From: Nannocystis bainbridge
GTDB taxonomy: Bacteria; Myxococcota_A; Polyangia; Nannocystales; Nannocystaceae
Assembly: GCF_028368995.1 (NCBI RefSeq)
Contig: NZ_JAQNDL010000003.1
Location: 288,001 to 352,000 of the forward strand
Reading direction: 5' to 3'
Length of the DNA stretch: 64,000 nucleotides
Below, piece after piece: positions 17,865-61,800 of the stretch. Both the position numbers and the translations under genes were made by a program. The notes beneath the pieces were generated by a model that did not search any database, was not told the DNA's origin, and saw only the letters and a list, made by a program, of their open reading frames with translations. Position 1 is the first letter of the stretch, and each line of letters starts with the position of its first letter.

Positions 17865-19012
17865 CCGCCCCCAGCCTCTACCGCCGGCCGCTGCCGCGCG
17901 AGCTCGTCGCCTTCGCCTCGCCCGCGGGCAGGGCCCTGTTCGACGCGGCGCGCGCGGCTGGCGGGCTCGAGTCGTTCTTCCCGCTCATTGAACAGTTCCA
18001 CACCCAGGCCGATCCGGCCTTCTGCGGCCTCGGCACCCTCGTCGTCGCCCTCAACGCCCTCGGCGTCGACCCGGGCCGGCTGTGGCGCGGACCATGGCGG
18101 TGGTTCAGCGAGGAATTGCTCGACTGTTGCAGCCCGCTCGAGCGCGTGCGCGCCGTCGGCATCACCCTCGACGAGTTCGCCTGCCTGGCCCGCTGCAACG
18201 GCGCCGCCGCCGAGGTCCACCGCCCTGATGCGTCCTCGCTCCTCGAATTCCGCGCCGCGATCGAGGCCGCCGCGCGCAGCGTCGTCGATCCGGCCCTCGT
18301 CGTCAGCTACGACCGCAGCGCGCTCGGCCAGACCGGCGCCGGCCACTTCTCGCCGATCGGCGGCTACGACCCCGCCAGCGATCACGCCCTCGTGCTCGAC
18401 GTGGCCCGCTTCAAGTACCCGCCGCACTGGGTCCCCGTGCCCGCCCTCTACGCGGCCACGCAGGCGCCCGACCCCGCGACCGGCCGCCCGCGCGGATGGG
18501 TCACCCTGCGCCGCAACGCCCGCCCGCCGAGCCTCCTGTTCACGGCCCGCTGCGTCGCCGGCGGCGGCTACGAGGCGTTCGCCGCGGCCCTCGCCGCCGT
18601 CACCACGGCCCTCGCCACCGCCTCCGCGCCCGACCTCGATTCCGTCTTGCGCGCGCTCGGCTCGGCCCTGCCCGGCCTGCCCCTCACCATCGAGCGGCGC
18701 CCGCTGGTCCTGTCCGAACAGACAGGTGAAGCCGAGGCCCTGCTGGCGGCCCTCCGCGGCCTGCCGCTGCACGCCCGCGTCGAAGCCCTCGGCCCGCCGT
18801 GGCCGGCCGACGCCGTCACCCTGCTGCTGCTCGCGCTGCCCGCCGAGGCCTGGTCCGGCCTGACCGCCGAGGCCCGCGCCGAGCTGCAGCCGCTGCTCGA
18901 CCTCGAGCGCCTGCCGCCGCCCGTGCGCATCGAAGCCGAGCACGTCTGCCGCCAGCTCGCCGACCTCGGCGCCCTGGCCCGCCGCCCGGCCTGCGGCGAC
19001 TGCTGCGAATGA
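17861..19012 (+). CDS. Phytochelatin synthase (glutathione gamma-glutamylcysteinyltransferase) family protein
   Basis: TQADPAFCGL (catalytic Cys), GHFSP (His) and LDVARFKYPPHW (Asp); DPGRLWRGPWRWFSEELLDCC; ATGA overlap with the SRPBCC gene. Confidence 0.92.
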   Translation: MTAPSLYRRPLPRELVAFASPAGRALFDAARAAGGLESFFPLIEQFHTQADPAFCGLGTLVVALNALGVDPGRLWRGPWRWFSEELLDCCSPLERVRAVGITLDEFACLARCNGAAAEVHRPDASSLLEFRAAIEAAARSVVDPALVVSYDRSALGQTGAGHFSPIGGYDPASDHALVLDVARFKYPPHWVPVPALYAATQAPDPATGRPRGWVTLRRNARPPSLLFTARCVAGGGYEAFAAALAAVTTALATASAPDLDSVLRALGSALPGLPLTIERRPLVLSEQTGEAEALLAALRGLPLHARVEALGPPWPADAVTLLLLALPAEAWSGLTAEARAELQPLLDLERLPPPVRIEAEHVCRQLADLGALARRPACGDCCE

Positions 19013-19046
19013 TTCATGGGCCCCGGCCTGCGCTATCCTGCCGCGC

Positions 19047-20846
<1,800 letters not shown>

Positions 20847-28881: not shown

Positions 28882-29614
28882 TCGCCTCCCCGCTGCGCTC
28901 CGCCGCCTCTACCGCGCCGGCGCGCCCGAATCACATGTCCTTAAAGACATGTCCGTTCCACCACTGTCTTTGGAACAGGACCTCATGGCCAGGTTCGCCC
29001 GCCGCGCCCCGGCGCCCGCGCGGCCCGGCCTGGCCGGGTTCGTCCGCGGCCACCGCTGGGCCCTCTCGACCGGCCTGGCTGCGATCGCGGTCGCGGCCGC
29101 CTGCCGCATGCCCTCCGACTACGACCGCGGCTTCGGCGCGACGGTCTGGTGCGAGGCCGCCGTCGCCGACGTGCACGCCGGCGATCGCCTGCGCGCCGTC
29201 GCCGACCGCCTGCAGGAGCGCGCGGGCGCCGAGCAGGTCACGGTGCGCGTCCACGCCGAGCACGACGACCTTGCGACGATCCGCATCGATCTCTGGGGCG
29301 AGGCCGCGACCGGGGTCGACGACGCCCTGCTGACCGAGCTCGCCGACGTGCCCGAGCTGCGGCTCGATGGCTGCCGCGTCGAGCCCCTGGTCGAGACGGT
29401 CCACGGCACCCTCGGCGGCCGCCTCGGCCTCGAATGGTTCGACCTCGAGCTGCTCGACCGGGACGACGCCGAGGCCGCGCGCGCCGAGATCCTGGAGCGC
29501 CTCGAGGCCCGCGGCCTCCGCGGCGACGCCCAGGTCGAGATCTTCGACGACGGCGCCGGCCGCCGCGAGGTCACGATCCGCATCGAGGCCGAGGGCGAAC
29601 TCACCGAGCCCTGA
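28868..29614 (+). CDS. Putative anti-sigma factor (single TM, extracytoplasmic domain)
   Basis: GTG with AAGGAG RBS overlapping the ECF 3' end; short N-terminus, TM helix (WALSTGLAAIAVAAAC), then a soluble domain. Confidence 0.65.
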   Translation: MPWLDRLPAALRRLYRAGAPESHVLKDMSVPPLSLEQDLMARFARRAPAPARPGLAGFVRGHRWALSTGLAAIAVAAACRMPSDYDRGFGATVWCEAAVADVHAGDRLRAVADRLQERAGAEQVTVRVHAEHDDLATIRIDLWGEAATGVDDALLTELADVPELRLDGCRVEPLVETVHGTLGGRLGLEWFDLELLDRDDAEAARAEILERLEARGLRGDAQVEIFDDGAGRREVTIRIEAEGELTEP

Positions 29615-40056: not shown

Positions 40057-40085
40057 AAAGCGGCCTTGTGCGTTGGAGGGGCGGG

Positions 40086-40115
40086 AAAGTAGCCGCGGGC
40101 TCCCGGGGGTGTCAA
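40086..40115 (-). promoter_or_regulatory. Sigma70-type promoter of rpmB
   Basis: Minus strand TTGACA-N18-TACTTT, 30 bp upstream of the ATG. Confidence 0.7.
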
Positions 40116-40484
40116 GGGAACTCCCGCCGCCCCGCCGCCCGCGATCGCGGCCCGGCCCTCGCCCCGGCCGCGGCGCCCTGGCCTGGACCCCTGGCGCAGC
40201 AGACGCTCGAATCTGCCGCTTTGGGCCGCTCCCGGGGCTTCCTGGGGCTCCCGGCGGCCTCGCCGCCCGTGCGCTAGCGCTCGCGCCACTGGCGCCTTGC
40301 TGCCGCTGGCCGCCGCCGAAACGAATGGCCCTGATTTAACGCCGACCGGCAGGCGGGCAGATCTTGCTGGATCGCGGCCGGCCGAACGGCCCTGCGCCGG
40401 GCGGACGCCTACAGCGCACGCGAGGCGCCGCGATCTCCCGCGAGCGCCGGCGTCGAGATCTGCGCGCGGACCGCCTGCACCGGT

Positions 40485-40564
40485 GGACATGTCCCACGGG
40501 ACATGTCTGAAAAACCACGTACGAAAGGGCACGTCCCGCAGGACATGCCCTTTCGTTCATGCGT
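40485..40564. repeat. 14-bp-period palindrome array (6 units)
   Basis: CATG/CACG cores at 40488, 40502, 40516, 40530, 40544 and 40558. Confidence 0.85.
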
Positions 40565-40585: not shown

Positions 40586-41269
40586 TCAGGGCGCGGCGCC
40601 CTCGTCGATCCACTGCTCGACCAGCGCGATCTTGTCGGCGGCGAGCGGCGGGCCGCCCTTGGGCATCTGCGCCGGGTTGCCGTTGAACGGGCCGTCGCCG
40701 CTGGTGCCTTTGAGCTTGGCCAGGAAGTACGACGCGGCCGCGTCGCCGGGCGCGATCCGCTTGAAGCCGGCGGCCTGGGTCGAGTCGACGTCGACGATCG
40801 CCGTATAGGCGGAGGCGGCGTCGGAGAACGTCAGGCCGCCGCTGCCCTGGGTGTGACAGCCGCAGTTGCCGGCGATCGCGGCCGGGAACACGTCGGTCTC
40901 CCAGCTGAGGCCATCGCCGGTGGTGGTCGTCGTGGTCGTCTCCGGCTCCGTCGAGGTGCCGGGCTCGGTGGTGGTGGTCCCGGGCTCGGTGGTGGTGGTC
41001 CCGGGCTCCTCGGTGGTGGTGCCGGGCACGGTCGTCGAGTCCGTGTCCGTGGCGGTGGTGGTGGTCGTCGTCGTCGGCTCACCCGTGGTCGGCTCGTCGG
41101 TGGTCGACTCGGTCGCCGTGGACGTGCCGTCGGTCGTCGAGGCCGTATCGTCGGTCGTGGTCGTGCCGGGGGTGACGTTCGCGTCGGTGGCATTGCCGTC
41201 GTCACCACAAGCGACGAGCGGCAAGGTCAGCAAACTGAAAGTGAAAATCAATTGAAGCGAGTTCTTCAT
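40586..41269 (-). CDS. Thr-rich lipoprotein with C-terminal cytochrome c-like domain
   Basis: Lipobox LVAC, TTTTEPG repeats, SWETDVFP..NCGCH..PGDAAASY..QMP..WIDEGA. Confidence 0.72.
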   Translation of the reverse strand: MKNSLQLIFTFSLLTLPLVACGDDGNATDANVTPGTTTTDDTASTTDGTSTATESTTDEPTTGEPTTTTTTTATDTDSTTVPGTTTEEPGTTTTEPGTTTTEPGTSTEPETTTTTTTGDGLSWETDVFPAAIAGNCGCHTQGSGGLTFSDAASAYTAIVDVDSTQAAGFKRIAPGDAAASYFLAKLKGTSGDGPFNGNPAQMPKGGPPLAADKIALVEQWIDEGAAP

Positions 41270-42145: not shown

Positions 42146-43099
42146 GTGAGCCTCCTGCGCGCATTGCCGGCGATCGGGCTCGCGCTCGCGCTCACGGGCT
42201 GCGGGGCGCCGCTCGCATACTCGCGCTTCGTCGCCGAGACGCCGTACAGCACGGCGCCGCTGCCCGCACGCGCCCACGTGTTCCTGATCGCGGGCGGCTC
42301 CGACGTCGCCAACTTCGCTGCCGAGGTCGCTGCACAGCGCGAGCTGCTGCGCACCCGCGGCGTGCAGGCCGACGAGATCGCGTGCTACTGGGCCCAGCCG
42401 ACGCGGGAGGCGTTCCGCCGCGACCGTGCGCAGTACCGTCGCCTCGCGGCCGCGCTCGTCGACTGTTACCCGGCCGCCACGGCGATCGTGCGCGAGCACC
42501 TGGCCCGCGCGGCCGCGAGCGAGCCGCCGTTCCTCTACGTCTACGTCAGCACCCACGGGCTGAGCTCGCTGCTGCCCCCGGATGTCCCGAAGGACCTGCT
42601 CGAAGCGCCAGATGCGGCGATGCTCGACCAGTACGCGCTGCAGCTGGCGGCCGGGCCGGGCCGCGGGTTCCACCCGGCGTTCCTGATGGCGGCCCGCCGC
42701 GCCGGCGCGCCGACCGACGACCTGGTGTTCTCGCCGGGCATGCTGGCCCGCGCGCTGCAGGCGTTGCCCGCTGCGACGCCGAAGGTGGTGGTGCTGCAGG
42801 CCTGCCACGCCGGCGGCTTCGCCCCCGCGCTCGCGCAGGTGCCGGGCCTGGTCGGCCTGGCCGCGGCCCGCCACGACCGCACCAGCTTCGGCTGCGACCC
42901 CGGCCCCGACATGACGATCTTCGGCGCGATCTACATCCGCCTGCTGGAGCGCCGCCTCGGCGAGCCCGCAGCCCTGCCCTCGCTCGACTGGCACGCGCTC
43001 TACAAGCAATTGCAGGCCGAGGTCACCCGCGCCGAGGCCGCCCAGGGCGCGACGCCGTCGCTGCCGGTGCTGCTCGAGAGCGCGGCGCCGGAGCCGTAG
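42146..43099 (+). CDS. Clan CD cysteine peptidase lipoprotein (C13/legumain-like)
   Basis: Lipobox LTGC; His-Gly (YVSTHG) and Cys (VVLQACHAGGF); AAARHDRTSFGC. Start uncertain. Confidence 0.75.
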   Translation: MSLLRALPAIGLALALTGCGAPLAYSRFVAETPYSTAPLPARAHVFLIAGGSDVANFAAEVAAQRELLRTRGVQADEIACYWAQPTREAFRRDRAQYRRLAAALVDCYPAATAIVREHLARAAASEPPFLYVYVSTHGLSSLLPPDVPKDLLEAPDAAMLDQYALQLAAGPGRGFHPAFLMAARRAGAPTDDLVFSPGMLARALQALPAATPKVVVLQACHAGGFAPALAQVPGLVGLAAARHDRTSFGCDPGPDMTIFGAIYIRLLERRLGEPAALPSLDWHALYKQLQAEVTRAEAAQGATPSLPVLLESAAPEP

Positions 43100-43108
43100 C
43101 GGCGCCGC

Positions 43109-43457
43109 GGACAGGTCCTCGAGGACATGTCCTTCGGGACATCTTCCTTAAAAAAACGGCGCTCGTCATGACAATGCCCGAAGGACATGTGCTTTCGGCC
43201 AGCCATGCGATCCGCCCGCGCGGCCCGCGGTCGCAGCATGGCCCGGAGGACATGCCCGATCGGTCAGCCTCGCGTGCCCCCGACGCTCGCCGCGCTCACG
43301 ACCCCAGCCGATGCGCCGCGAGCCGGCTGGGCGCCCGCGAATCGAGCGCCGCCGCGCGAGCCGGACGGACCTGTCCCGAAGGACATCCTCGCTCGCGCCG
43401 GTCAGCCACGCCGCTGCTATCGGACTGACCTGTCCCGAAGGACACCCTCGCTCGCGG
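43109..43457. repeat. Cluster of 14-bp-period dyads between convergent genes, including a ~35-bp direct repeat
   Basis: Cores at 43112/43126/43140, 43186/43200, 43237/43251/43265, 43370/43384 and 43429/43443; gacctgtcccgaaggaca-cctcgctcgcg occurs twice. Confidence 0.85.
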
Positions 43458-43458
43458 C

Positions 43459-46200
43459 TCAGCCCTGGCCGGCGATCCACGCCGAGATCGCGGCGGCGAG
43501 GGCCGTCTCGCCGCCCGCGGACGCCTCGCCGAGGGCCTGGCGGGCCAGCGCCACCGTCTGCGCCCGGCTCTCCGGGCCGGTCTCGCCGGCGGCGGCGTCG
43601 GCGGCTGCGCGCGCCTTGGCGAGGGCGAAGCGGGCCAGCGCGACCTGGGCCGGCGCGCCGGCGCGGGTCGCCAGGCCGAGCGCGCGGGTGCACGCGCCCT
43701 GGGCCGCGGCGTGCTCGCCGAGGGCCGAGTCGACGGCGCACAGCCACGTCAGCGGCTCGACCAGGCGCGGATGGTCGGGGCCGAGGCTGTACTCCCAGGC
43801 CGCCAGCGCGCGCCGCAGATCGCCGGCCGCGTCGGCCCACCGCTGCTGGGCGGCCGCCGCCAGCCCGCGGCCGACCAGCGCCGGCGCCATGTCCGGGTGG
43901 TCCTGGCCGTAGATCTTGGCGTAGATGGCGAGCGCGTCGTCGTAGCGCTCGCGGGCCGCCGCCGCGTCGCTGCGGGCGCGCGCGAGGTCGCCGGCGACCA
44001 CGTGGACGCGGGCCCGGCCCGGGTGCTCCGGCGGCAGGCGGGCCGTCGCCAGCTCGTGGGCGCGGGCGACGTGGCTGGCGGCCTCGCGGTCGCGACCGCC
44101 GCGCTGACAGGCCGCCCCCAGGTCGAGCAAGATCGGCAGCAGCCGCGGATGATCGACGCCGAGCAGCTCCTCGCCGCGGCGCAGCGCCGCCGCCAGCTCG
44201 ACCCGCGCCGCCTCGGCGTCGCCCTCCTGCAGCAGCGCCCGGCCGTAGCGACCGCGCGCGCTGGCCTCGCGGCGGCCGTCGTCGCCGAGCCGCTGCAGCG
44301 CGGCCGACAGGCGCGGCCACAGGCGACGCGCCTCGCCGCGGCGGCCGAGGTCCTCGCACTCGACGCCGAGCTGCAGGGTCAGGGCGTCGGCCGCGACCTC
44401 GTCGTGGCGGCTCGCCTCCGCCGCCCACAGCGCGTCGGCCAGCCCGCGCGACGCCGCCTCGGCCCGCCCCAGCGCCCGCTCGATCGCCGCCCGCCCGTAC
44501 AGCGCCTCCGCCCGGGCCGGCAGCCACGTCTCCTCGTCGGCCGCCAGCGCGCGCGCGATGTCCCACGCCCGCGGCGCGTCGCCCAGCGCCAGCACCGCCC
44601 CCGCGTGGTCGAGCTCCGCCCGCAGCCGCTCGACCAGCGCGCGCGGCCCGTCCTCCTCCGGCTCCGGCACCGCCGCCGCCAGCCGCCGCGGATCGTCGCA
44701 GTCGCGCGGGGCCGGCAGGCCGTCGAGCGCCGTGCCGGCCCGATCGAGCGCCGGGCCCGAGGCCTCGGACAGCGCCCGCGCCAGCCCGGCGAAGGCGCTG
44801 CGCCGGCGCTCGAGGCAGGCCCGTCGCCGCGGCCCCGCCGCGTCCGCGGCCGCCGGATCTGCCTGCGCGTTGCGACATGTCTCCTGGTACATGTCCCGAA
44901 GTTCTTGCGCGTGGCGATCGATGGCCGCCAGGATCGGACCGGCGAACACCGCCCCGCCGGGTCGCTCGGCCAGGGCGCGGCCGAGCCCGGCCCTGCGCGC
45001 GTCGTCCCAGCCGAGGTCGGGCGCCTCGCACATGCCCGCCGGGACAGGTGACTCCGGGCGGGCCGCGACCACCTCGTGCACGGCGAACGCGGCCCCGGCG
45101 AACGCGACCGCCAGGCCGGCGCCGAGCCAGATCCGGCGGCTCAGCCGGTGCCCCCGCGGCCGCTCGCCGAGGTAGTCGAGCAGCTCGTCCATGCCCTTGA
45201 AGCGGTCGGCGGGGCGGACGCTGAGCCCGCGCAGGACGATGCGGTGCAGCCACGCCGGCACGTCCGTGTCCTTCGGCACCTCTTGCACGCGGCCGGCCAG
45301 CACCGCCTCGCGGACCACCGGCACGCGGTCGCCGACGAACGGGCGCTGGCCGTAGAGGCCCTCGTACAGCGCGACGCAGAAGCTGAACTGATCGGTGCGC
45401 GCGTCGGTGGCCTGGCCCTGATACTGCTCGGGGGCCATGTACGCCGGCGTGCCCGTCATGCCGCCCGTGCGGGTGATCCGCATGTCGAGCAGGCTCTTCT
45501 CGGCCATGCCCTTGATCGCCTCGGTATAGGTGTCGGGGCGGGCCAGCGGGCCGATGCCGCGGCCGGCGCGGGCGAGCCCGAAGTCGCCGACGCGCACGCG
45601 ACCCTCGGCGTCGATCATCACGTTGTCGGGCTTGAAGTCGCGGTGGATGACGCCGGCCTTGTGCGCCGCCGCCAGCCCGCGGCCGGCCTCCATGAACACC
45701 AGCAGCACTTCCTTCCACCCGCGTCGCCGCGGCCCGTGCGGGCCCTCGGCCGAGCGCAACCACTTCGTCAGCGTCACGCCCTTGACGAACTCCATGGCGA
45801 GGAAGATCTGGTCCTCGACCGAGCCGACGTCGAAGATCGCGATCACGTTCGGGTGCGACAGCTGGGCCATCGCCTGCGCCTCGCGCAGCAGCCGGTGGCG
45901 CGCCTTGTCGCGCTTGGTGCGGCTGATCGCGGCGGTCCGCAGCACCTTGAGCGCGACCTTGCGATCGAGGTCGCGGTCATAGGCGACATAGACGACGCCC
46001 ATGCCGCCGGAGCCGAGCCGCTTCAGCACGTTGAAGCGGCCGATCTGGCTCGGCACCGGCTCGAGCTCGGCCGCGCAGTCGTTGGCCGGCTCGCCGTCGA
46101 CCGGCGGCGTCAGCGGCGTGCCCATCTCGGGCGACGGGCTCACGTGCGACAGCACCGGCGTCAGCGGTGTGTCCAGTGTCCGATCGGCGGGAGAAGACAC
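43459..46200 (-). CDS. Membrane Ser/Thr protein kinase with TPR repeats
   Basis: GSGGMG, HRDFKPDN, DFG and GTPAYMAPE motifs, TM helix, LG.DHP TPR repeats. Start uncertain. Confidence 0.92.
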   Translation of the reverse strand: MSSPADRTLDTPLTPVLSHVSPSPEMGTPLTPPVDGEPANDCAAELEPVPSQIGRFNVLKRLGSGGMGVVYVAYDRDLDRKVALKVLRTAAISRTKRDKARHRLLREAQAMAQLSHPNVIAIFDVGSVEDQIFLAMEFVKGVTLTKWLRSAEGPHGPRRRGWKEVLLVFMEAGRGLAAAHKAGVIHRDFKPDNVMIDAEGRVRVGDFGLARAGRGIGPLARPDTYTEAIKGMAEKSLLDMRITRTGGMTGTPAYMAPEQYQGQATDARTDQFSFCVALYEGLYGQRPFVGDRVPVVREAVLAGRVQEVPKDTDVPAWLHRIVLRGLSVRPADRFKGMDELLDYLGERPRGHRLSRRIWLGAGLAVAFAGAAFAVHEVVAARPESPVPAGMCEAPDLGWDDARRAGLGRALAERPGGAVFAGPILAAIDRHAQELRDMYQETCRNAQADPAAADAAGPRRRACLERRRSAFAGLARALSEASGPALDRAGTALDGLPAPRDCDDPRRLAAAVPEPEEDGPRALVERLRAELDHAGAVLALGDAPRAWDIARALAADEETWLPARAEALYGRAAIERALGRAEAASRGLADALWAAEASRHDEVAADALTLQLGVECEDLGRRGEARRLWPRLSAALQRLGDDGRREASARGRYGRALLQEGDAEAARVELAAALRRGEELLGVDHPRLLPILLDLGAACQRGGRDREAASHVARAHELATARLPPEHPGRARVHVVAGDLARARSDAAAARERYDDALAIYAKIYGQDHPDMAPALVGRGLAAAAQQRWADAAGDLRRALAAWEYSLGPDHPRLVEPLTWLCAVDSALGEHAAAQGACTRALGLATRAGAPAQVALARFALAKARAAADAAAGETGPESRAQTVALARQALGEASAGGETALAAAISAWIAGQG

Positions 46201-46951: not shown

Positions 46952-48277
46952 ATGAGCAATACCTTGATCAGAATTGCGGGGGCGCTCGCGCTGACCGCCG
47001 CGTGCGGCCCCAAGAGCGGCAACGAGAGCGACAGCACCAGCGAGACCGGCGGCGAGTCGATCACCGAGAGCACCACCGGAAGCGGGACCGCCGACCCGCC
47101 GGAGTCGACCGGCACGCCCGAGCCCACCACCGGCGAGCCCACCACCGGCGAACCGGCCGAATGTCCCGAAGGACAGGATCCCCTCGCGCCGCTGTGGAGC
47201 GCCGAGTTCGCGCCCGAGCCGTCGTCGTTCGGGTTCTACAGCGGCATGGTGCCGATGGGGCGCATGGCGGACGGGCGGATCGTCGTGGCCATGAACTTTC
47301 AGCCGTCCCAGGACCAGAGCGGACTGGCGCTGCTGGTGACCGCGCCGGACGGCGCGCTGCTCGGCCCGCAGACGGCCGCGCTGGGCACCTCGGCGGTCGA
47401 AGTCCACGCCCTGCACGTCGACGCGGACGATCAGCCGCTGGTGCTCGCCGAGCACTTCGACGGGGACGGTTCGGTCCACATGTTGACGCGCTTCGACACC
47501 GACATGGCGCCGCTGTCGCAGGCCCTGCTGCCCTTCCCGTCGCCGCACCCGCTGTTCCGGCCGGTGATGGGCGTGGGCGGCGACGTGCTGGCGATCGCGG
47601 GCCTCGACGAACAGCAGGGCACGCAGCAGATCACCAGGCTCGCGCCCGACACCGGGGCGCCGCTGTGGAAGCACGAGCTCGCCGGGCCCGCCGACCTGTT
47701 CCCGCGCCAGATCGCCGTCGGCCCGCAGGGCGACGTCGCGGTCGCGGCCCACGCCGACTTCAACGCCGACGAGGAGGACACGCTGCGGCTGTGGCGCTTC
47801 GACGCCGACGGCACGCTGCTGTGGGACCGCGTGCTCACCGTCCCGGTCTACGAGGACATCACCGCCCTGCACTTCGCCCCGGACGACCAGCTCGTCGTGC
47901 TGCGCGGCACCGTCGAGTTCTCGACGCGCGTCGAGCTGCTGTCCGTCGAAGTCGCCACCGGCGAGACCCGCTGGGAGCTGACCGTCGCCGAGCCCGAGGG
48001 CGACATGACGGCGTGGGCGCAGGACATGTTGGTCGACAGCGACCGCTTCACGATCCCCGTGTCGCGCAGCAAGTCGCATCACGACATCGCCACCAGCACG
48101 CACTCGCTCGAGCTGCGGACCGTGTCGCTCGCCGGCGAACTGCTGGAAGTCACCCCGCTGCCCGGGGTGCTGATGCCGGATGCGACCTCGTGGGTGCGCA
48201 GCCTCCGGGGCCGCTGCGGCGAGCTGATCGTGCTCGAGAGCTCCTCGAACCTGCGGCTGTTCGCGTTCGCGCCGTGA
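46952..48277 (+). CDS. Lipoprotein with beta-propeller-like domain
   Basis: Lipobox TAAC, Thr/Glu-rich linker, repeated DTGAPLW / DGTLLW / TGETRW motifs. Confidence 0.72.
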   Translation: MSNTLIRIAGALALTAACGPKSGNESDSTSETGGESITESTTGSGTADPPESTGTPEPTTGEPTTGEPAECPEGQDPLAPLWSAEFAPEPSSFGFYSGMVPMGRMADGRIVVAMNFQPSQDQSGLALLVTAPDGALLGPQTAALGTSAVEVHALHVDADDQPLVLAEHFDGDGSVHMLTRFDTDMAPLSQALLPFPSPHPLFRPVMGVGGDVLAIAGLDEQQGTQQITRLAPDTGAPLWKHELAGPADLFPRQIAVGPQGDVAVAAHADFNADEEDTLRLWRFDADGTLLWDRVLTVPVYEDITALHFAPDDQLVVLRGTVEFSTRVELLSVEVATGETRWELTVAEPEGDMTAWAQDMLVDSDRFTIPVSRSKSHHDIATSTHSLELRTVSLAGELLEVTPLPGVLMPDATSWVRSLRGRCGELIVLESSSNLRLFAFAP

Positions 48278-50044: not shown

Positions 50045-51037
50045 TCAGGGCAGCGCGAGGCCCCGGTCCGGCACCGCCAACCACGACAGCGCCGGCTGCG
50101 GTGGACCCGGATGCACGCCGAGGTAGCGATTGATGGCGAAACTGGTGACGTAGAGCTTCTTCATCGTCAACAATGTCGGCCCGAAGACCAGGCTCGACGG
50201 CGCGTCGAGCAGGCCACCCTCGGCCAGGACGGTGACGTCGCCGTCATCATCGATGCGCACCAGCCGGTCCTGACCGTTGACCGCGACGTAGAGGTCACCG
50301 TCGGCGTCGAACGCGATGCCGTCGGCGCCGGCCAGCGCCTCGTAGTCGTCGACCCAGACCTCGGGCTCGCCGGGCTCGCCGTGACAGTCGACCGGGATGC
50401 GGACGATCGTCCCGAAATCGAGGTTGCCGACGTAGAGGTTGCGCTTCCACCGGTCGAACGCGATGCCGTCGACGCCGAAGCTGTGGAACGGCAAGAACGG
50501 GCTCACCGGGTCGCCCTCGAGCGACGGATCGGCGAGCCACACCTCGGCCTCCCCGTCGTCGTCGATCTTCCAGATCAGGCCGAGGAACGGGTCGGTGACG
50601 TAGAGATCGCCGCGCTCGTCGAAGGCGAGGTCGTTGGGGAAGCCGGACGGATCGAGCGCGGCATACTGGGTGGTGTGGCCGGTGACGGGGTGGATCCGCC
50701 ACACGAACGCGGCCGCAGGCGCGGGGGCGAACGAGCCGCTGCCGGCGTACAGCCAGCCGTCGGCGCCGAACTTGAGCCCGAGCATGAAGGTGCCGGCCGG
50801 CACCGGCGGCGTCGCGAGCGTCGTGAACTGGCCGCCCGGCTTCAGCTTCTTCACCACCGGCCCCATCGACATGTAGAGGTTGCCCGCCCAGTCGGCGGTG
50901 ATCGACTCGGGCAGCTCGCCCTGCGCCGGGTCGAACGCCCGCACCAGCTTCGGCGCGGCCGCCTCCGCCTGACCCGCGCCGCACAGCACCGCCGCACCCA
51001 TCACGATCGCCATCGTGGTTTTCATCGTCATCGTCAT
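50045..51037 (-). CDS. Secreted SMP-30/gluconolactonase-like beta-propeller protein
   Basis: Signal peptide; PESI, PNDLAFDERGDLYVTD, DGIAFD and ADGIAFDADGDLYVA. Confidence 0.85.
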   Translation of the reverse strand: MTMTMKTTMAIVMGAAVLCGAGQAEAAAPKLVRAFDPAQGELPESITADWAGNLYMSMGPVVKKLKPGGQFTTLATPPVPAGTFMLGLKFGADGWLYAGSGSFAPAPAAAFVWRIHPVTGHTTQYAALDPSGFPNDLAFDERGDLYVTDPFLGLIWKIDDDGEAEVWLADPSLEGDPVSPFLPFHSFGVDGIAFDRWKRNLYVGNLDFGTIVRIPVDCHGEPGEPEVWVDDYEALAGADGIAFDADGDLYVAVNGQDRLVRIDDDGDVTVLAEGGLLDAPSSLVFGPTLLTMKKLYVTSFAINRYLGVHPGPPQPALSWLAVPDRGLALP

Positions 51038-51616
51038 CACCGATCCCCCCACCGCAGACGCTACGGGCCGGGCGCACGCCGCGTCAACGCTCAATCATAA
51101 GACCATGGGAAATTCCATGCATCGGTCGATGCAATGACGTGTAGGCGCCGCCGTCACGTCGCCGCATCAGCACGAGGATGACGCGGCCCGCCGGCGACAC
51201 CGGCGAGCGGCCCATGGTGCCGCGCCGCCCCAACCCGCGGACGGTGACTGCAATCGGCCTTGCACGGCCGCGCTCCCTCTACACAATGCACATTCGGCGA
51301 ATCACGCGTCGTGCTTCGCCCGCGCGCGCACCTCTTTCGCCGACACGAAATCGCGGCGAGCCTCGCGGCGAAGCGCCGCCCTCGCGGCGCGCCGCTCGTC
51401 GCGGCCGCGCACCGGTTCCCGGCGCCGAATCAAGATGTCTCTTCGGACATGTCCCTTCGTCACCCACGGCTCGCCGCCCGGCCGCTCGCGCGGCTGCCCG
51501 AAGGGCCGAGCTCGGTGCCGGCCCGAGCCGCGGGCGCGCGGCCTGGCGGGCTCTCGGCGGCGAGCGGCTGCAGGGTCGTGGACGCGGGCGGCGGCGCGCT
51601 CTAGACTGCCGCGGCT

Positions 51617-52174
51617 ATGGCACGAAGCAAGACCAGCAATTGGGTGAGCCTCGCCCTCGCGGCGACCGTGGGCATCGGCGCGTACGAGCTCGGGCTGTTC
51701 GACTGCGACAGCACCGACGGGGTCGAGCACCTCGCCAATCAGGTGTGGATCGAGCGGCTCCCGCAGAACGACCGCGACCAGATCCACCACCTCGTGCTGC
51801 TCGAGCAAGGCCGCGACCGCTTCGGCGGGTTCGGCAAGAGCTCGCAGTGGCGGCACTTCCTCGAGATCTTCGCGTGGCACCGCGAGCAGGGCCGCCTGAC
51901 CCTCCACCTGCCGCAAGACCGCGTGCGCCTCGACCTCGAGGCCCGTGTGTGGGACTGCGAGGACGAGGCCCCGGCCCCGTTCGAGCTGTGCCTCGAGCTC
52001 AAGGGCCAGAAGCACACGTCGCGCTACTACAGCCGCTACGACTGGGTCATCGAGGGCGACAAGGCGCCCCACATCGAGGGCCTGCCCGAGCTGGTCCCCC
52101 ACGCGGCCCCGACGCTGCCCGAAGGCTTCGAGTTCACGCCCGACGCCGACGCCCAGGCGCTGCTGGCCCACTGA
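51617..52174 (+). CDS. Hypothetical membrane-anchored/exported protein
   Basis: Typical GC3-rich codon usage and an N-terminal hydrophobic segment; no family recognised. Confidence 0.65.
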   Translation: MARSKTSNWVSLALAATVGIGAYELGLFDCDSTDGVEHLANQVWIERLPQNDRDQIHHLVLLEQGRDRFGGFGKSSQWRHFLEIFAWHREQGRLTLHLPQDRVRLDLEARVWDCEDEAPAPFELCLELKGQKHTSRYYSRYDWVIEGDKAPHIEGLPELVPHAAPTLPEGFEFTPDADAQALLAH

Positions 52175-54030: not shown

Positions 54031-54825
54031 GTGCGCCTCCATGCCCTCGCCGTCGCCGCGTTGCGGGGCCACGTCGAGCGGTTCCTCCGCGCCCACGGCG
54101 TCGACCCCGGGCAGCCGCGCGAGGACGCCGAGCTCGACACCTTCACCCTCGTGAGCATGCTGCTGGCCGCGCTGGGCCACGTCCGCGCCGCCTACCCGTG
54201 GCCCGCAGGCGCGCCCGGGCCCGACCCGCCGGGCCTCCTGCCGGCCGTCGCCGCCGCCCTGCCCGCCTACCACGCGCCGCTCACCGCCGACGCCTGCGTC
54301 GAGGCCCTGCGGCGGGTCCTCGGCTTCGCCGTCGACGCCGGCCCGTGCCAGCGACGCGCCGCCCCGCCGGCCGTCTATCCCTACATGTCCTTCGAGACAG
54401 ATGACTCCCTGCGCGCCGCCGACCTCGCCGACCGCGTGCTCGGCGTCGTCACCGACGACGGCTGGCTCGCCGAGCCCGCGCGCCGTGACATCGTCCTCGC
54501 CGCCGCCCTGCCCGCCAACGCCGAGCCGACCCGCTTCGAAGCGCTGGACCGCGAGCGCGCCAGCGCCCTGGCCGCCCACCTCCTCCCGGGGACCGACCGC
54601 CACGCCGCCGCCGCCGCGTTCGTCCGGCTGTTCGGCGACGCCACCCTCTGCTTCGGCCTGCACGACCAGGGCAGCGAACGACCCGACCCCTTCGCCCACG
54701 GCCACGCGTGGAGCCGCTACGACGCCCACGGCTACGGCAGCTGGGGCCGCACCCTCGTGCTCGCCGTCACCGACGGCCTCCGCGTCGCCTACCTCGACGC
54801 CCTGTGGGACGTCACCAGCGAGTGA
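54031..54825 (+). CDS. Hypothetical protein
   Basis: GC3-rich coding frame with protein-like composition; no family recognised. Confidence 0.6.
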   Translation: MRLHALAVAALRGHVERFLRAHGVDPGQPREDAELDTFTLVSMLLAALGHVRAAYPWPAGAPGPDPPGLLPAVAAALPAYHAPLTADACVEALRRVLGFAVDAGPCQRRAAPPAVYPYMSFETDDSLRAADLADRVLGVVTDDGWLAEPARRDIVLAAALPANAEPTRFEALDRERASALAAHLLPGTDRHAAAAAFVRLFGDATLCFGLHDQGSERPDPFAHGHAWSRYDAHGYGSWGRTLVLAVTDGLRVAYLDALWDVTSE

Positions 54826-54876
54826 CCCGGGACATCGAGCCCGCGTCCCCGGTCGCCTCGCAGCGCGACATCCGAG

Positions 54877-54953
54877 GGGCATGTCTCTGAGAACATGCCC
54901 CGGAGCACATGCCCGAAAGGACATGTCCTCGAGAGCATGCCCGCGGGGACAGC
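54877..54953. repeat. 14-bp-period palindrome array (6 units) between convergent genes
   Basis: CATG at 54880, 54894, 54908, 54922 and 54936, plus GACAG at 54950. Confidence 0.88.
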
Positions 54954-54954: not shown

Positions 54955-55731
54955 TCAGCCGAGCCCGGCCAGGAACGCCGACACCACCGCCGCCGTCTCG
55001 TCGGGCCGCTCGACCTGCACGTAGTGCCCCGCCCCGCGGAGCACGGCCAGGCGCGCGCCTGCGATCCGGTCGACGATCGTCTGGCGCAGGAACGGCGGTG
55101 GCATGAACGGATCGTCGGTCGCCACCACCAGCGTGCGGGCCGTGATCGCCCCCAGGCGATCGGCGAAGCTCAGCCCCGACCACGACTCGAAGCCCTCGGC
55201 GATGCACTTCGAAGGGATCGTCTCTCCGGCCGCCAGCAGCCGCTCGCGCGCGCTGTCCGACAGGTTCGTGCACGCCATCCCGAGGATCGTCGCCTTCGCC
55301 TCGCGGTTGTCGGCCCCGCGGAACAGCCCCGCCGCGTCGGGCGGGAACGGGATGCCCGACGCCGGCACCGGGCACAGCAGCACCTGCCCTTGCACCCGCT
55401 TCGGCTCCGCCGCCGCGATCCACTGCGCGATCGCCCCGCCCATGCTGTGGCCGATCAGCACGAATGACCTGTCCCCGAGGACATCCATCAGCTCGGTGAT
55501 GTCGGCCGCGTAGCGCTCGACCGTGTAGCCCGCCTCGGGCCGGCCGGACTCGCCGGCGCCGCGCAGGTCGGGGATCACGAGCCGGAAGCCCGCCAGGTCG
55601 AGCCGCTCGGCCAGCTCGTCGTAGACCGCGCTGGAGACCATCCAGCCGTGGATCGCCAGGACCGTCCGCGGGCCCTCGCCGAGCACGCGGTAGGCGATCT
55701 GGACCTTGTCGCTCGTCGTCATCGTCGGCAT
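54955..55731 (-). CDS. Alpha/beta hydrolase
   Basis: IHGW, DLRGAGES, GHSMGG, DD.F and GAGHY..E.P motifs. Confidence 0.93.
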   Translation of the reverse strand: MPTMTTSDKVQIAYRVLGEGPRTVLAIHGWMVSSAVYDELAERLDLAGFRLVIPDLRGAGESGRPEAGYTVERYAADITELMDVLGDRSFVLIGHSMGGAIAQWIAAAEPKRVQGQVLLCPVPASGIPFPPDAAGLFRGADNREAKATILGMACTNLSDSARERLLAAGETIPSKCIAEGFESWSGLSFADRLGAITARTLVVATDDPFMPPPFLRQTIVDRIAGARLAVLRGAGHYVQVERPDETAAVVSAFLAGLG

Positions 55732-55848: not shown

Positions 55849-58800
55849 CTACAGTTCGCCGATCTGGCGCAGGAAGTCGGTCGCCTCGGTGCAGTTCGGG
55901 TCCTCCATCAGCGCCTTGCGGCCCCACAGCACCGCCTTCTGGCGGTCGCCGCGCCGCTCGGCGATGTAGCCCTGGCGCAGGTAGGCCACCGCCCGGCTCA
56001 TCGGCGCCGCCTCCATCAGCGCGATGCTGCGGAGCACGCGGATGGCGAGGTCGTAGTCCTCCATCTGCTCGGCCAGCGTCGCCAGGGCGACCGCCACGTC
56101 GCCGTTGTTGCGGTCGGTGTTGTGGGCCTCCTTGAGCCAGTGCAGCTCCTGCTCGAAGTTCTCCTGGGCCCCGGCGACCATCGCCTTGCGGTACTGCATG
56201 GCGCACAGCTCGGGCGAGCGGCGGCCCCTCATCGCCTCGATCGCCGCGTCGAGGATGGTGTTGGCCTCGTCGAACTGCTCGGCCGCGGCGTAGGCCTCGA
56301 CCAGCAGCAAGTTGACCGCCTGATCGGCCGGGCGCAGCTTGAGCGCCCGCTTGAGCGCCTCGACGGCCGCCTCCGCGTCCTCGTCGAGCAGCAGCTCGCC
56401 GGCCTGGCGCAGCGTGACGAAGCGGGTCCCCTCGTCGGTGATCACGTCGGCCTCGGCGATCAGCAGCCGCGCGAGCGCCGGGTAGTTCTCGGTCTCCTCG
56501 AGGATCTGCTTCAGCCGCGCGCGCACGGCCTCGTTCTTCGGCTGGGCCTTGTGGGCCACCTCGAGCCCGGCCTGGGCGTCGTGCGGCCGGCCGACCTGCT
56601 CGCAGGCGTCGACCAACTGCATCGCCGCCTTGATCTGCTCCGCGCCGGTCTCGGCGGCCACCAGCCGGGTCGCCGTCTCGATCACGCTCTCCCACCGGCC
56701 CGCCGCGACGTCCATCACCGTCAGCTGGCGCAGCGCCTCGGTGTCGCCGGGCGCGTGCTCGAGCCACCCCGACAGCGCGTGGCGGGCCTGGTCGTCGGCG
56801 CCCTCCTTGCGCAGGACGTCGGCCAGCCGCAGCGTCGCGCTGCGCTCGCCCTCGCTGTCGTTGCGCTTGGCGGCCGCGCTGCGCCAGCGCTCGAGCCCGT
56901 CGATCAGATCGGGGATGAGCTCGGCGCCGACCAGGCCGTACGCCTCCTCGAGGTCGGCGGAGGCCCGGGCCTCGTCGCCGATGATCATGCGCAGCTCGGC
57001 GCGGCGGCGCAGGAACTCGACCTGCACGTCCTGCTCGAGCGGGCGCCAGTCGATCGCCTTCGTCAGCTCCTCGACCGCGCTGACGTGCTCGCCGGTGTCG
57101 CACAGGCGGGCGATGAACTCGCGCAGCAGGTCGTTGTCGTTGGGGTCGAGGGCGGCCGCGGTGCGCAGCACCTCGGCCGACTTGCCGGCGTCCATCAGCT
57201 GATCGGCGTAGATCGTCGAGGCCTCGCGCAGCAGCCCGACCGCCTGCGTCGGGTCGACCGAGCGGTCGGCCGACCCGACCAGCAGCTCGGCCAGGCGCTC
57301 GAACTCGCCGCGCTCGCGGTACCACGCCTCGAGCCGCTCGCGCAGCGCCTCGCTGTCGGGCGCGGCCTTGTAGCCGGCCTCGAGCACGCGGGTGGTCGCC
57401 TCGCGCTCGCCGAGCTTGTCGTACTGACCGGCCAGGTCGAGCGCCAGGCGGACCGCCGCCTCGCCGGTCTCGATCGCCAGCAGCCGCTCGCCGATCTCGG
57501 CCCGCTCGCGCGGGTCCGCCTCGCCCTCGGTCAGGCTCAGCATCGCCTCGATCAGCGCCCGGCTCTGCGGCGCGAAGTCGAGGGCGGTGCGGTAGACCGC
57601 CAGCGCCTCGTCGGGCTGGGTCTTGCGCAGCAGGTCGCCGAGCCGCAGCGAGGCCGCGATCACGCCCTCGCTGTCGCCCGCGCCCTGGGCCGTCAAGATC
57701 TGCTGGTTGAGCAGGTCGACCAACTCGGCGTCGAAGCCGGTCTTCTCGAACACCTCGGCCAGCAGCGCCTCGGCCTGCTTGTGGCCCGGCTCCTCCATCA
57801 GCACGTCCTTCAGCAGGCGCACCACTTCTTGCTCGTGGCCGCCGGCCTGCAGCAGCGCGTCGACCAGGTCGAGGCGCAGCTGGTTGCGCTCGCCGACCTC
57901 GGCGAGGCTCGGCAGCGTCGACTCGACCAGCTGCTGCAGCCGCGCCGGGTCACCGGCCTTGCGGTACACCGCCATCAGCGGGCCCCACACGGCCTTGTCG
58001 CTCGCGTCCTGCAGCAGCAGGTCCTCGTAGACCTCGGCGGCCAGCGGCAGCTGCTCGGTCTGCGCCGCCGCGAGCCCGGCGATCTCGCGCTGGAGCTCGA
58101 AGGTCCGCGCCAGCTGCCAGTTGGCGGCCGACTCGCGCAGGAAATCGACGGCGCCGCGCAGGTCACCCGCGGCCTTGCGGCGCTCGGCCAGGGTCAAGTA
58201 GGTCTCGGCGATCGCCTGGCCGCTGCCCTCGCGCTCGCCCACCAGCTCGATGCGTCGCACCAGCAGCTTCTCCGAGCGCTCGCTCTCGCCGAGCTCGAGC
58301 GCCAGGTTCGACGCCTCGTCGGCGACCTTGGGATCGACGCCCTCGACGTTGACCTTCTGCTCGAGGTACGCGAGCAGCCCCTGGCGGTCGCCGAGCTTGC
58401 GCACGATCTGCTCGTAGAGCTCGCCGAGCTCCTTGTGATCCGGCGCCGCCGCGAGCGCGCGGCGCAGCACCGGCTCGGCCAGGTCGAGGCGCGGCTCGGT
58501 CTGCAGCGCGCGCCGCATCGCCGCGACGCCGGCGTCACGCGACTCGGGCGCGGCCAGCTGCAGCTCGGCCAGGCCGAACGCCGCGCGGGCGCGGACCTCC
58601 GGCGTGGTCGCGTCGTCGGGGGCGCCGGCGATCCGCTCGAGCAGCTCGACCTGACGCGCCGAATCACCGCGAGCCGCGGCGATCCGCGACAGCCCCAGCC
58701 ACGCGTCGACGACCCGCTCACCGCTGGCCTCGACGCGCCCGTACAGCTCGGTCGCGCGGGCCTGGTCGGCGAACTCGCGCTCGACGATGTCGGCGGCGCG

Positions 58801-61800
58801 CAGCAGCAGGTCGGCCTGCAGCTTCGCGTCTTGCTTGCGGCGCGCGCGGTCGACCAGCCCGATCACCGCTTCGACGTAGCTCGCGCCGTGACCGAGGCGC
58901 GTCGCCAGCTCGGCCGCAGCCTGCTGCAGCGTCGCCGAAGCGGGGTCCTGCTGCAGCGCCTCGAACCGCAGGCCCAGCGCCTCCTCGGCCTGGCCGGTGG
59001 CCTCGAGCGCGTCGGCCAGGTCGCCGAGCACGCTGCCGCGGGCCGCCGGGTCCTGGGCCGCGGCCAGGCGCGAGCGCAGCACCCGGACCAGCAGCGATTG
59101 GTCGCCGCGGCTGCGCAGCGCGCGTTGCAGCTTGCGGGCCTCGCGGTCGTCCTGCAGCGCCGCCTCGATCGCCGAGCCGAGCAGCTCCTGCGCCAGGTCG
59201 GCCTGCCCGCGGCCCTCGGCCAGGCGGCTCAGCTCGTACTGCGCTTCAGCGATGCCGATCAGGCCCTCGTCGCCGTCGACCCCGCGGCGGCGCGCGGCCA
59301 GCAGCAGCGCGCGGTAGCTGCGTTCGGCGCGCGCGAGGTCACCTGTATCTCGGGACAGCTCGGCCAGCAGCTGCAGGCTCGCCACGTCGCCGACGTCGAT
59401 CGCCGTCGCCAGCTCGAGCTGGGCCACCGCCGCCTTGGTGTCGCCCAGCGCGCGCGCGACCTGGGCCAGCTTGTAGTGCACGCGCGCCCGCTCCGGCGGC
59501 CGGCGGCGCCCGAAGTCGGCCAGCAGCCGCTCCAGCACCCCCTGCGCGTCAGCCCAGCGCTCGCCCGAGACCAGCGCGTCGGCCAGGTAGGCCAGCACGC
59601 CGCGGTCGTCGGGCACGAGCGCGTGCAGGCGCTCGAGCACCGGGATCGCGCGATCGAGCTCGCCGAGGCGGTCGCGCACGATCGCCGCCGCCTCGTAGAG
59701 GAACGCCAGCACCTGCTCGCGATCCTCGGTGTGCTCGGCCGCGACTTGCAGCAGCGACGCCAGCGGCTCCCAGTCGCCCGCCTCGCGCTCGAGCTGGATC
59801 AGCAGGTCGCGCGTGCGCGCCTCGGCCGGGTGGTCGGCGACCGCCCGCGTCAGCACCTCGATCGCCTTGACGTTGCGCCCGGCCCCGAGCAGCGCGCTCG
59901 CCAGCCCGAGCACGATGTCGGTCCGCTCCGATCCTTCGGGCGTGCGGACCAGCCGCTCCGTCAGCCACGGCACCGCCTCGGCCGGCTCGCCGCGCGCCAC
60001 GTACAGCCGCGCCAGCGCGTCGAGGTTGTGGAAGTTCGGCGTCAGCGAAGCGGCGCGCCGGTGGCTCGACAGCGCCACCGCGACGTCGCCGATCCTGCGC
60101 TCGGCCAGCTCGGCCAGCTGCGTCCACAGCCGGACCGCGCGCGGCTTGTCGTCGACCTGCTCGAGCCGGGCCGCGTGCTCGCCGAGGAAGCTCGCCAGCT
60201 CGTCGGGGCTGGCCTTGTCGGCCAGGATCTCCGTCAACGCCGCCAGCGACGGGTCGTGGCTCGGATCGTCCTGCAGGTTCGACCGCAGCGCCTCGACTCG
60301 CCCGCCGCGCTGCTCGATCACCCCGACCAGCCGCGCGATCTCCAGCCGCAGCTCGAGCCGGCGCGCCGCGTCTGGCTCCTTGGCCAGCTCGTGCTTGCGC
60401 AGCGTCAGCAGCTCGGGGAACCGCTCCTCCGCCTGCAGCAGCGGCCCGAGCAGGCGCAGCACCTCGAGGTCGTCCGGGGCCGAGGCCAGCGCTGTCTCGT
60501 ACAGCCCGATCGCCCGCTGGCGATCGCCGAGCTCGGTGAAGATCGCGGCTGACCTCACGCGCATGTCCTGAGCGACAGGTTGCGCGAAGGGCAAGGTCGA
60601 GACCTTGGCCAGCAGCTCGGCCGCGGCCTTGCGGTCGCCGTCCTGCTCGGACAGCTGCGCCAGCTTCTGCGCCGCCCAGCCGACGCTGGCCTCGTTGCTG
60701 CGCTTGCCGGTGGCCGCCACCCCGCGGCTCCACAGCGCGGTCGCGCGGGCCAGAAGGCGCCGGAGGATGTCGCGGGTGATGTCGGTGCCGCCGAGCAGCC
60801 CGAGCGCCAGCTCCGACGCCTCGTACAGCGGATCGAAGTCCGTCTCGCTCAGCCCGTCGAGCGCCAGCAGCGTGTCGATCAGCGCCGGCTCGGGCGCCGC
60901 GCGCTGCAACTCGGCCAGCGTCTGCAGCCGCTCGCGGTGGCCCGGCTGGGCCGCCACCGAGCGCAGCAACGCCTCGCGCGCCGCGGCCTCGTCGCCGCGC
61001 TGCTCGCGGTGCCACTGGGCCACGCGGGCGGCCACGAACGCGTAGAGCTCCGGCGTCAGCGAGCTGCTGGCCGCGTTGGCGGCGGCCTCGAGCGCCAGCG
61101 TCAGCCGCTCCCAGCCGGCGTGCTCGGCCGCGAGGCCCTCGACCAGCGCGAACGTGGCGTCGTCGATCTTCTGGTCGCCGACGATCTGCCCGAGCAGCGC
61201 GTGCGCGGCGGCCGAGAAGTCGTCCACCGCCGCCGCGCTGCGGATCGCCCCGCGGACCGCCTCGGCGTCGCTGCGGGTCGCCGACAGCACCGCCTGGTAG
61301 GCCGCCAGCGCCCGCGCGGCGTCGTTCAGCTTGTGCTCCGCCAGCCGCGCCTCCGCCAGCCGCAGCTCGGTCGCGCGGTGCGGCTCGCCGGCGATCGTCA
61401 CCCCGGCCGCCTTGTGCAGCGCCTCGGCCGCGGGCCCGAAATCACCTGTCTCTTCGGACAGACGCAGAAGATCGCGCTCGATCGAGCGGTCGGCCGGCGC
61501 CAGCGGGAACGCCCGGGCCAGCGCCGCCACGGCGGCCGCTTTGTCGCCGGTGTGCGCCTCGTGCAGGCGGGCCGTCTCGCGCAGGATGTCGACCTGCTTG
61601 ATCGGATCGCCTTCGGCCCCCGCCAGGCGGGCGTCGACGATCGCCGCCAGCTCGCTCCACTCGCCGCGGCCGCGGTACAGCTTGCCGAGCACCTCGACCG
61701 CGCTGCTGCGCGCCTCGGTCTCGAGCGTCGCCAGCAGGCCCTCGCGCGCGCCCGCGTGGGCCGGGTCGGCCGTCAGCGCGGTGTCGTAGCAGGCCACCGC

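Follow-up and report, generated by a model that had tools for sequence, protein, structure and literature searches.

It is rare for a hyper-abundant word to be retained within genes, and what such words do is a question of long standing. HIP1 (GCGATCGC), an over-represented palindrome of cyanobacteria, is described in one report as conserved inside as well as between open reading frames (ORFs), suggesting selection and a chromosome-level role, and as a word whose function 20 years of study had not revealed (PMC5861425); two further papers tie it to two DNA methylases (PMC4390886, PMC13756078). The uptake sequences of Neisseria (DNA uptake sequence, DUS) and of the Pasteurellaceae (uptake signal sequence, USS) are described as present in hundreds to thousands of copies, lineage-limited and located in coding regions (PMC2346458). 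Here we analyze a 64,000-nt stretch of DNA (the window) from Nannocystis bainbridge, in which a 14-bp dyad, TGTC-N6-GACA, recurs in and between genes, along with its occurrence across the whole genome (11.05 Mb on 5 contigs, 71.5% G+C; assembly completeness 90.5%). HIP1 and the Neisseria/Haemophilus uptake sequences are its closest analogues. The reading that we favor, with a probability of about one half, is that TGTCC-N4-GGACA is a Nannocystis-specific recognition dyad that acts at the level of DNA and is kept by selection or drive, its reader being putative.

Like HIP1, the Nannocystis word is short, palindromic and hyper-abundant in ORFs: in coding sequences (CDS) it is 13-14 times more frequent than a codon-aware expectation allows, and its synonymous positions are conserved. 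Conservation between genomes holds inside ORFs, the intergenic copies being kept no better than their background. The architecture differs, given that HIP1 is a contiguous 8-mer whereas the Nannocystis word consists of two separate halves (5+N4+5) with exact tiling every 14 bp; moreover, the latter is about nine times denser between genes than in CDS, builds long hairpins at the 3' ends of genes and belongs to another phylum. The likeness to uptake sequences, which occur as inverted pairs behind genes, lies in copies that are lineage-limited, number in the thousands, entered CDS by substitution, give rise to hairpins behind genes and are few in an island of atypical G+C. However, uptake words are asymmetric, oriented words read by a competence receptor, and the Nannocystis word, a dyad with a symmetric logo and no U-tract behind its hairpins, is not such a word. 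Repetitive extragenic palindromic (REP) elements and the bacterial interspersed mosaic elements (BIME) are likewise imperfect palindromes that lie outside genes and cluster at their 3' ends, in many cases where two genes converge, and that vary among relatives, but the Nannocystis units are shorter, tile at 14 bp and have 1359 of their 3663 exact copies in genes, where they are conserved. A search for the REP-associated tyrosine transposase (RAYT; Y1 transposase, PF01797) found no match in the N. bainbridge genome, at its 90.5% completeness, and matches in 6 of 14 control genomes; the word is therefore not a REP/RAYT system. Finally, intrinsic terminators share with it G+C-rich hairpins directly behind stop codons, but the Nannocystis arrays use one stem sequence genome-wide, have copies in genes as well and lack a U-tract (a T-rich stretch within 20 nt follows 9.5% of 608 downstream dyads versus 8.9% in a mirror control); having no U-tract, they are not canonical intrinsic terminators.

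The original prediction, made from the letters of the window alone, had placed the dyad at 11 positions, and the motif is present at all 11, with the consensus C[A/C]TGTCC-N4-GGACA[T/G]G. Its fuller repeat unit is GGACATGTCC followed by N4, tiled at an exact 14-bp period, and the symmetric logo of the dyad extends to RAC[A/C]-TGTCC-N4-GGACA-[T/G]GTY. The genome holds 3663 copies of TGTC-N6-GACA as against 29-155 for each other spacing from 0 to 14, and the decamer GGACATGTCC, which is made where dyads abut, has 956 exact copies versus 0-26 for seven control palindromes. Successive decamer units (with at most two mismatches) lie 14 bp apart in 2654 cases, 13 bp apart in 21 and 15 bp apart in 10; the spacing is echoed at 28 bp (579 cases) and 42 bp (161), and the longest chains have 8 units; similarly, CATG pairs are spaced by 14 bp 3736 times versus 66-401 times at other spacings. 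Among one-mismatch variants, those altered in the outer TG or CA occur at about 1x the shuffled level, and are thus not enriched, while those altered at inner positions occur at 3-9x: the outer TG and CA are critical and the inner positions tolerant of change. The junction ACATGT is the most over-represented palindromic hexamer of the genome (1.61x); a general enrichment of RCATGY was not seen, ACATGT alone being enriched and GCATGC standing at 0.99.

Genes were called with our own, crude codon-likelihood caller, which yielded 8217 CDS at about 85% coverage. Exact dyads lie wholly within called CDS in 1359 cases (37%), between genes in 2259 and on an edge in 45. When synonymous codons were shuffled within each gene, keeping the protein and the codon usage of the gene, the in-CDS count dropped to 97.3±11.1 over 10 shuffles (maximum 122), and the codon-shuffling check proposed along with the original prediction thereby came out in its favor. 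For other spacings the observed and shuffled counts in CDS were 80/81 (N4), 108/84 (N7), 15/16 (N8) and 42/15.5 (N5). The interiors of 2457 high-confidence genes, trimmed by 150 nt at each end, contained 322 dyads against 24.7±5.1 in shuffles. In the window, with 55.6 kb of called CDS, six exact in-CDS dyads were found where 0.58 were expected (Poisson P = 3e-5), and genome-wide 971 of the 8217 genes contain at least one. The first T of the dyad falls on codon position 3 in 696 copies, on position 2 in 558 and on position 1 in 105. The uncommon A/T-ending codons remarked on at the first sites proved to be a general feature: of the 3944 codons with a core base as third base, 37.1% end in A or T versus 6.0% genome-wide, and 558 of 3822 ACA codons (14.6%) lie inside dyad cores, ACA accounting for 2.3% of Thr codons.

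Conservation was measured in a 440-kb block of contig 2 (301-741 kb), at positions with at least three aligned congeners (3-5 were used); the figures thus describe one block, related and non-independent genomes and alignable sites only, with the extended part resting on three congeners. The background of this block, as the fraction of positions identical in all aligned genomes, is 0.879 at first, 0.909 at second and 0.747 at third codon positions, and 0.277 (1270/4583) at third positions with A or T. Against this, 46 of 57 A/T third positions in dyad cores are identical throughout (Fisher 8e-17), a pattern repeated in both halves of the block (20/24 and 26/33), as are 130 of 147 core third positions overall. 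The N6 spacer of in-CDS sites is less conserved than the flanks (0.752 versus 0.809). From this conservation of their A/T third positions we conclude that the in-CDS sites are maintained at the nucleotide level, in agreement with the proposal that the motif is selected or generated in DNA through point changes. Dyads alignable in at least three congeners number 51 of 70 in CDS and 33 of 109 between genes; 49 of the 51 in-CDS dyads are gapless and 2 have an indel in any aligned congener.

The sites of the window on which the original prediction was built are as follows.

18711..18724, in the phytochelatin-synthase-like gene 17861-19012 (+): exact dyad TGTCCGAACAGACA, read as L-S-E-Q-T.
19896..19919, in the acyl-CoA dehydrogenase gene 19047-20846 (+): degenerate copy made of two units, GGACATGGCC-TTTC-GTACATGTTC, using codons GGA, CAT and CTT, with a CATG pair 14 bp apart and two core mismatches.
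28936..28955, between the stop of an ECF sigma gene (28881) and the next ORF: exact dyad with an abutting unit.
44873..44896, in the Ser/Thr kinase-TPR gene 43459-46155 (-): two-unit copy CGACATGTCT-CCTG-GTACATGTCC with one core mismatch.
45033..45046, in the same kinase-TPR gene 43459-46155 (-): degenerate dyad TGCC-N6-GACA with one mismatch.
47162..47175, in the PQQ_2 gene 46952-48277 (+): exact dyad with its first T at codon position 1, read as C-P-E-G-Q.
54386..54399, in ORF 54031-54825 (+), which has no Pfam family: exact dyad.
55470..55483, in the alpha/beta hydrolase gene 54955-55731 (-): exact dyad, sense strand ATG GAT GTC CTC GGG GAC AGG.
59344..59357, in the TPR giant gene 55849-63621 (-): degenerate dyad TGTA-N6-GACA with one mismatch.
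60564..60577, in the same giant gene 55849-63621 (-): exact dyad, sense strand CCT GTC GCT CAG GAC ATG.
61447..61460, in the same giant gene 55849-63621 (-): exact dyad, sense strand CTG TCC GAA GAG ACA GGT.

All of these had been taken to lie inside ORFs. That stands for 10, six exact dyads and four degenerate ones, whose reading frames are intact as claimed; Pfam supports the host genes of five of the six exact sites, the remaining one being ORF 54031-54825, and it bears out the gene names given in the original prediction. It probably does not stand for the site at 28936 (cited as 28934), which we read as a leader, judging from its position between the sigma stop and the first in-frame starts (ATG 28952, TTG 28970 and ATG 28985); the one in-frame start farther upstream, GTG 28751, would make the ORF share 131 nt with the sigma gene. 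In the congeners the region 28936..28955 shows substitutions and one 6-bp deletion. We also noted that ATG 28952 lies within the second unit (GACATGTCC) and is a candidate start of the ORF that follows the sigma gene; likewise, at C2:456173-456206 a three-unit array forms the last codons of a gene and runs into its stop codon. By their placement, units can apparently supply gene boundaries.

Five congeners, 85-92% identical, share synteny with the window, and all 11 sites align in them without indels inside the motif; syntenic blocks were located with DNA queries, as a single-gene attempt with one congener (G005) matched that gene alone. Codon-level comparison with orthologues from outside the motif-bearing clade was made at sites 18711, 55470, 59344, 60564 and 61447, and all five are gapless; the orthologue check proposed along with the original prediction likewise did not refute it. 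The changes that create dyads are synonymous moves to rare codons (GAA, GAT, AGG, ACA, GGT) together with amino-acid replacements, and several clustered substitutions are involved in origins such as those at 18711 and 55470. At 18711 four congeners have the same sequence, with codons CTG TCC GAA CAG ACA, as against CTC GCC/TCC GAG CAC GCG in more distant congeners; without any indel, distant Nannocystis genomes have CTC[GT]CCGAGCACGCG and the outgroups xPEHx. Five congeners are identical at 55470, where G006 has GCG GAC GAG CTC GGC GCA CGC and G009 has GCC GAC GAC CTC GAC GCC CGC, again without an indel. In place of the dyad at 60564, G009 and G002 have GAG ACC TCG CAG GCG/GCC ATG at equal length, and at 61447 G004 spells the segment with common codons, CTG GCC GAA GAG ACC GGC, also at equal length. 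The copy at 19896-19919 is near-identical in five congeners, yet its flank is highly conserved there as well; that at 44873..44896 is free of indels in five congeners, that at 45033 is partly lost through substitution in G005 and G007, and that at 54386 is retained in G001, while G003 has one substitution in the flanking CATG.

Dyad density is highest in convergent spacers, at 3.23 per kb (42% of the 1334 such spacers contain one or more); tandem spacers follow with 1.26 and divergent ones with 0.45, and CDS stand at 0.145. Of the copies in tandem spacers, 822 are closer to the upstream stop and 311 to the next start, and the long arrays lie within tens of bases of stop codons. A CRP/FNR-like operator was considered and rejected on this distribution, the promoter-bearing divergent spacers having the lowest density. 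Three intergenic features of the window illustrate the arrays and their turnover.

54876..54950, between two convergent genes: array of about 5 units at a 14-bp period, fold -42.4 kcal/mol, z = -4.45.
40486..40560, downstream of the gene 40586-41269 (-): unit-built pair of hairpins, fold z = -6.75.
43124..43444, convergent intergenic region: copies at 43128, 43372 and 43431.

Both array folds are more stable than all 200 shuffles. The hairpin pair at 40486..40560 is conserved in position in five congeners, with freely varying loops. As a separate matter, these five congeners carry an ORF of about 200 codons that is absent from the N. bainbridge genome at 40056-40480 (spacer of 990-1036 versus 561 bp), and the hairpin pair just downstream of that ORF position is retained in all six genomes. 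The region 43124..43444 differs in length and content in every genome (381, 521, 228, 154, 110 and 135 bp), with units in each version. In G010, the orthologue of 43099-43459 has a unit of about 73 bp, carrying a two-unit hairpin, three times in tandem, which shows that intergenic copies are amplified locally. Longer direct repeats, about 50 bp in length and with one dyad each, (for example ATCATCACATGTCCTGAGGGACATCTCATCC) occur at 12130-12180 and 12234-12284, and at 43360-43400 and 43419-43460; as these repeats embed dyads, some intergenic copies have therefore spread within larger units. An exact dyad with an abutting unit at 51436-51455 lies in a divergent spacer (50045-51040 - / 51644-52174 +), which is unusual for the motif, and this spacer may contain a small uncalled gene. 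Indels were found at 11 of the 33 alignable intergenic dyads, whose spacer is the fastest-changing part (0.374 identical). The intergenic copies thus turn over fast, changing by indels, and the original argument against a mobile or expanding repeat covers the in-CDS copies but not these.

The favored reading, a recognition dyad kept at the DNA level, would account for these observations in the following way. The GGACATGTCC junctions and the exact 14-bp period arise where copies of the dyad abut, and the reader would most likely be a dimeric, sequence-specific protein able to tile on arrays. A genome-wide force, either selection for the function of the reader or a drive such as biased recombination, would uphold the density of the word. 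Copies gather where they are cheapest, in 3' intergenic DNA and above all between convergent genes, there also being built into long hairpins, and within genes they are commoner where codon bias is weak and serial in low-complexity repeat segments. In genes it is point substitutions, never insertions, that spell the word, some of them synonymous with a rare codon as the product and others replacing an amino acid, and the word is then held against a strong genome pressure towards G/C at third positions. Of this picture, the excess over shuffled codons, the origin by substitution, the conserved synonymous positions, the placement and the taxonomic range are shown by the data; a protein reader that acts on double-stranded DNA, and its role, are inferred. 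A bolder version, which we put forward as tentative and think somewhat more apt to be wrong than right, is a genome-marking system of Nannocystis, in which a dimeric reader of TGTCC-N4-GGACA polymerizes on arrays in 14-bp register and a need or drive for density overrides codon usage and changes amino acids in about one-eighth of genes. If true, the mark could serve chromosome organization at gene ends or discrimination of self-DNA in recombination or uptake, and it would be a second, independent case of the HIP1 problem, in which the bipartite dyad and its exact tiling give structural work a better foothold.

Several points weigh against the favored reading. The reader protein remains putative, and the gradient of dyad density with codon bias fits a balance of cost against non-adaptive drive as well as it fits function. 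Conservation of whole in-CDS sites is modest, all 8 core bases being kept at 27 of 51 sites versus 18.6 expected from random CDS positions of equal phase (p = 0.012), although, with G/C at most random third positions, the control errs on the conservative side. The intergenic copies behave as hairpins, with covariation beyond the motif and very stable folds; in their downstream arrays, sense-strand G·T combinations exceed A·C ones (895 versus 589), as an RNA role predicts, a bias that the marginal base frequencies already carry; and those intergenic cores that can be aligned do not surpass the intergenic background in conservation (4 of 33 fully kept versus 7.1 expected). Some in-CDS copies are non-independent, in that they belong to peptides repeated in tandem, a gene having as many as 15 copies, and, as noted, the gene calls come from a crude caller of our own and the conservation figures from one 440-kb block of related genomes.

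One alternative is an RNA-level element throughout, whose hairpin stem would serve as a terminator, a barrier to 3' exonucleases or a site for an RNA-binding protein, the in-CDS copies being internal RNA signals. The placement of copies just after stops, the occupancy of convergent spacers and the array folds agree with it, as do stems that stay while loops evolve freely and the sense-strand G·T excess; furthermore, among 784 isolated intergenic unit pairs we observed Watson-Crick covariation within the unit that extends as far as 5 bases past its ends (z up to 7.5). The in-CDS copies behave otherwise: 307 isolated unit pairs showed no such covariation (|z|<1.7), the in-CDS sites that were folded did no better than shuffles (z -0.1 to -2.1), and wobble-compatible variants were not in consistent excess on the sense strand. 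A sense-strand bias towards UUCG or GNRA tetraloops was not found either (CGAA 48 versus TTCG 43), the search of the window against Rfam returned no family, the U-tract is missing, and a single stem sequence across the genome is needless for pure structure. We regard an RNA element throughout as unlikely, at roughly one chance in five. We conclude that in genes it is the sequence itself that is kept, most simply via a putative reader of double-stranded DNA, DNA binding being one of the two explanations that the original prediction favored; the intergenic copies are, additionally or independently, hairpins.

A second alternative, to which we accord the same low standing, is a non-adaptive drive, in which a biased process (gene conversion in short patches templated by the numerous copies, mismatch repair with a bias, or recombination that uptake skews, as with DUS/USS) re-creates the word everywhere and selection on protein and codons removes the costly copies. 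The in-CDS density indeed drops 8-fold with codon bias, being 0.28 per kb in the lowest decile and 0.036 in the highest. Gap filling or regular spacing, which we looked for, was not seen: in-CDS density is 0.105-0.2 per kb whatever the distance to intergenic sites, and chromosome spacing is near-random, with a coefficient of variation of cluster gaps of 1.15 versus 1.02 for random placement. Against a genome mean of about 33 dyads per 100 kb, a 200-kb island of lower G+C has 4 per 100 kb (G000 contig C1, ~1.1-1.3 Mb; G+C 0.686-0.692, lower coding fraction, 4+4 dyads), which is probably acquired DNA. The fast replacement of intergenic copies at a kept density and the several clustered substitutions at origins also fit a drive. 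However, the depletion of near-cognates that very-short-patch-like repair would leave was not seen, one-mismatch neighbors being in excess (4684 versus 2882 expected), and the known Neisseria uptake receptors read asymmetric words, unlike the dyad. The data here do not separate drive from selection; in the same way mutational protection, which the original prediction had offered beside DNA binding, cannot be separated on these data from selection and biased conversion.

A further alternative is that the peptides are what is wanted, C-P-E-G-Q in Cys-rich repeats and V-P-x-D in low-complexity repeats, with the DNA word as a by-product. The codon-position-1 class, which reads xCPEGQx and includes the site at 47162 (105 of 1359), may be partly peptide-driven, and several proteins hold 7-15 copies in tandem low-complexity repeats such as SPVPADMSPVTS. 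In the large proteins at G000 C2:2066054-2070511 (-), C3:712627-717846 (-), C5:658301-661411 (+) and C2:1216680-1218890 (-), with 11-15 dyads each, all dyads have the first T at codon position 3 and lie in tandem Pro/Ala/Ser/Asp-rich repeats (PEAVPADSQA, APVLADSPA, SPVPADMSPVTS), the word having multiplied in them via duplication of coding repeats. For the bulk of sites this explanation is largely refuted by the excess that persists although shuffling keeps every amino acid, and by the synonymous conservation of core A/T third positions, with copies spread over 971 genes, and we consider it highly improbable. Least credible of all is a mobile miniature repeat (REP/RAYT-like or MITE-like, i.e. 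a miniature inverted-repeat transposable element) inserted in frame into genes, which the indels and the local amplification of intergenic copies and the resemblance of the outer TG...CA to transposon termini might recall, but which is refuted for the in-CDS copies, given that none of the five sites compared outside the clade has an indel, that 49 of 51 are gapless among congeners, that a 14-bp unit cannot be inserted in frame and that the genome has no Y1 transposase match.

The taxonomic range was scored by counts of the 18-mer CATGTCC-N4-GGACATG. There are 369 copies in the N. bainbridge genome and 2-266 in each of the 10 other genomes of the genus, with traces of 1-5 copies in all five genomes of two sister genera; none was found in 45 other genomes of the family and class, and the reversed 18-mer, used as a control, was absent from all genomes. 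Such a sharp boundary suits a comparative search for the gene of the reader. The D12 methylase family was considered as a marker of the motif-bearing genera and set aside as uninformative, being present in 53 of 61 relatives regardless of the motif. In the literature searched, the motif is not described for Nannocystis or other myxobacteria, and the decamer retrieves only papers on p53 response elements, which we take as a coincidence of sequence. The case is an independent one in the Myxococcota, offering as handles a dyad that suggests a dimeric reader, the exact 14-bp tiling, which lends itself to pull-down and structural studies, and a contrast between the single dyads conserved inside genes and the hairpin arrays that evolve fast at gene 3' ends. 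For the annotation and heterologous expression of Nannocystis genes, the rare-codon clusters at the sites are not noise, and codon optimization would erase them.

Two minor observations may be added. At the orthologue of the site at 61447, G013, which belongs to another genus, reads CTG TCT GAA CGG ACA GGT, an exact TGTC-N6-GACA in a genus that otherwise has traces only; this could reflect chance, given its more numerous A/T-ending codons, or an older origin. Lastly, several G+C-rich or mixed palindromic hexamers are strongly under-represented genome-wide relative to the Markov expectation, namely AAGCTT (0.26), TCGCGA (0.30), AACGTT (0.36) and TACGTA (0.37), a pattern that restriction systems would produce.

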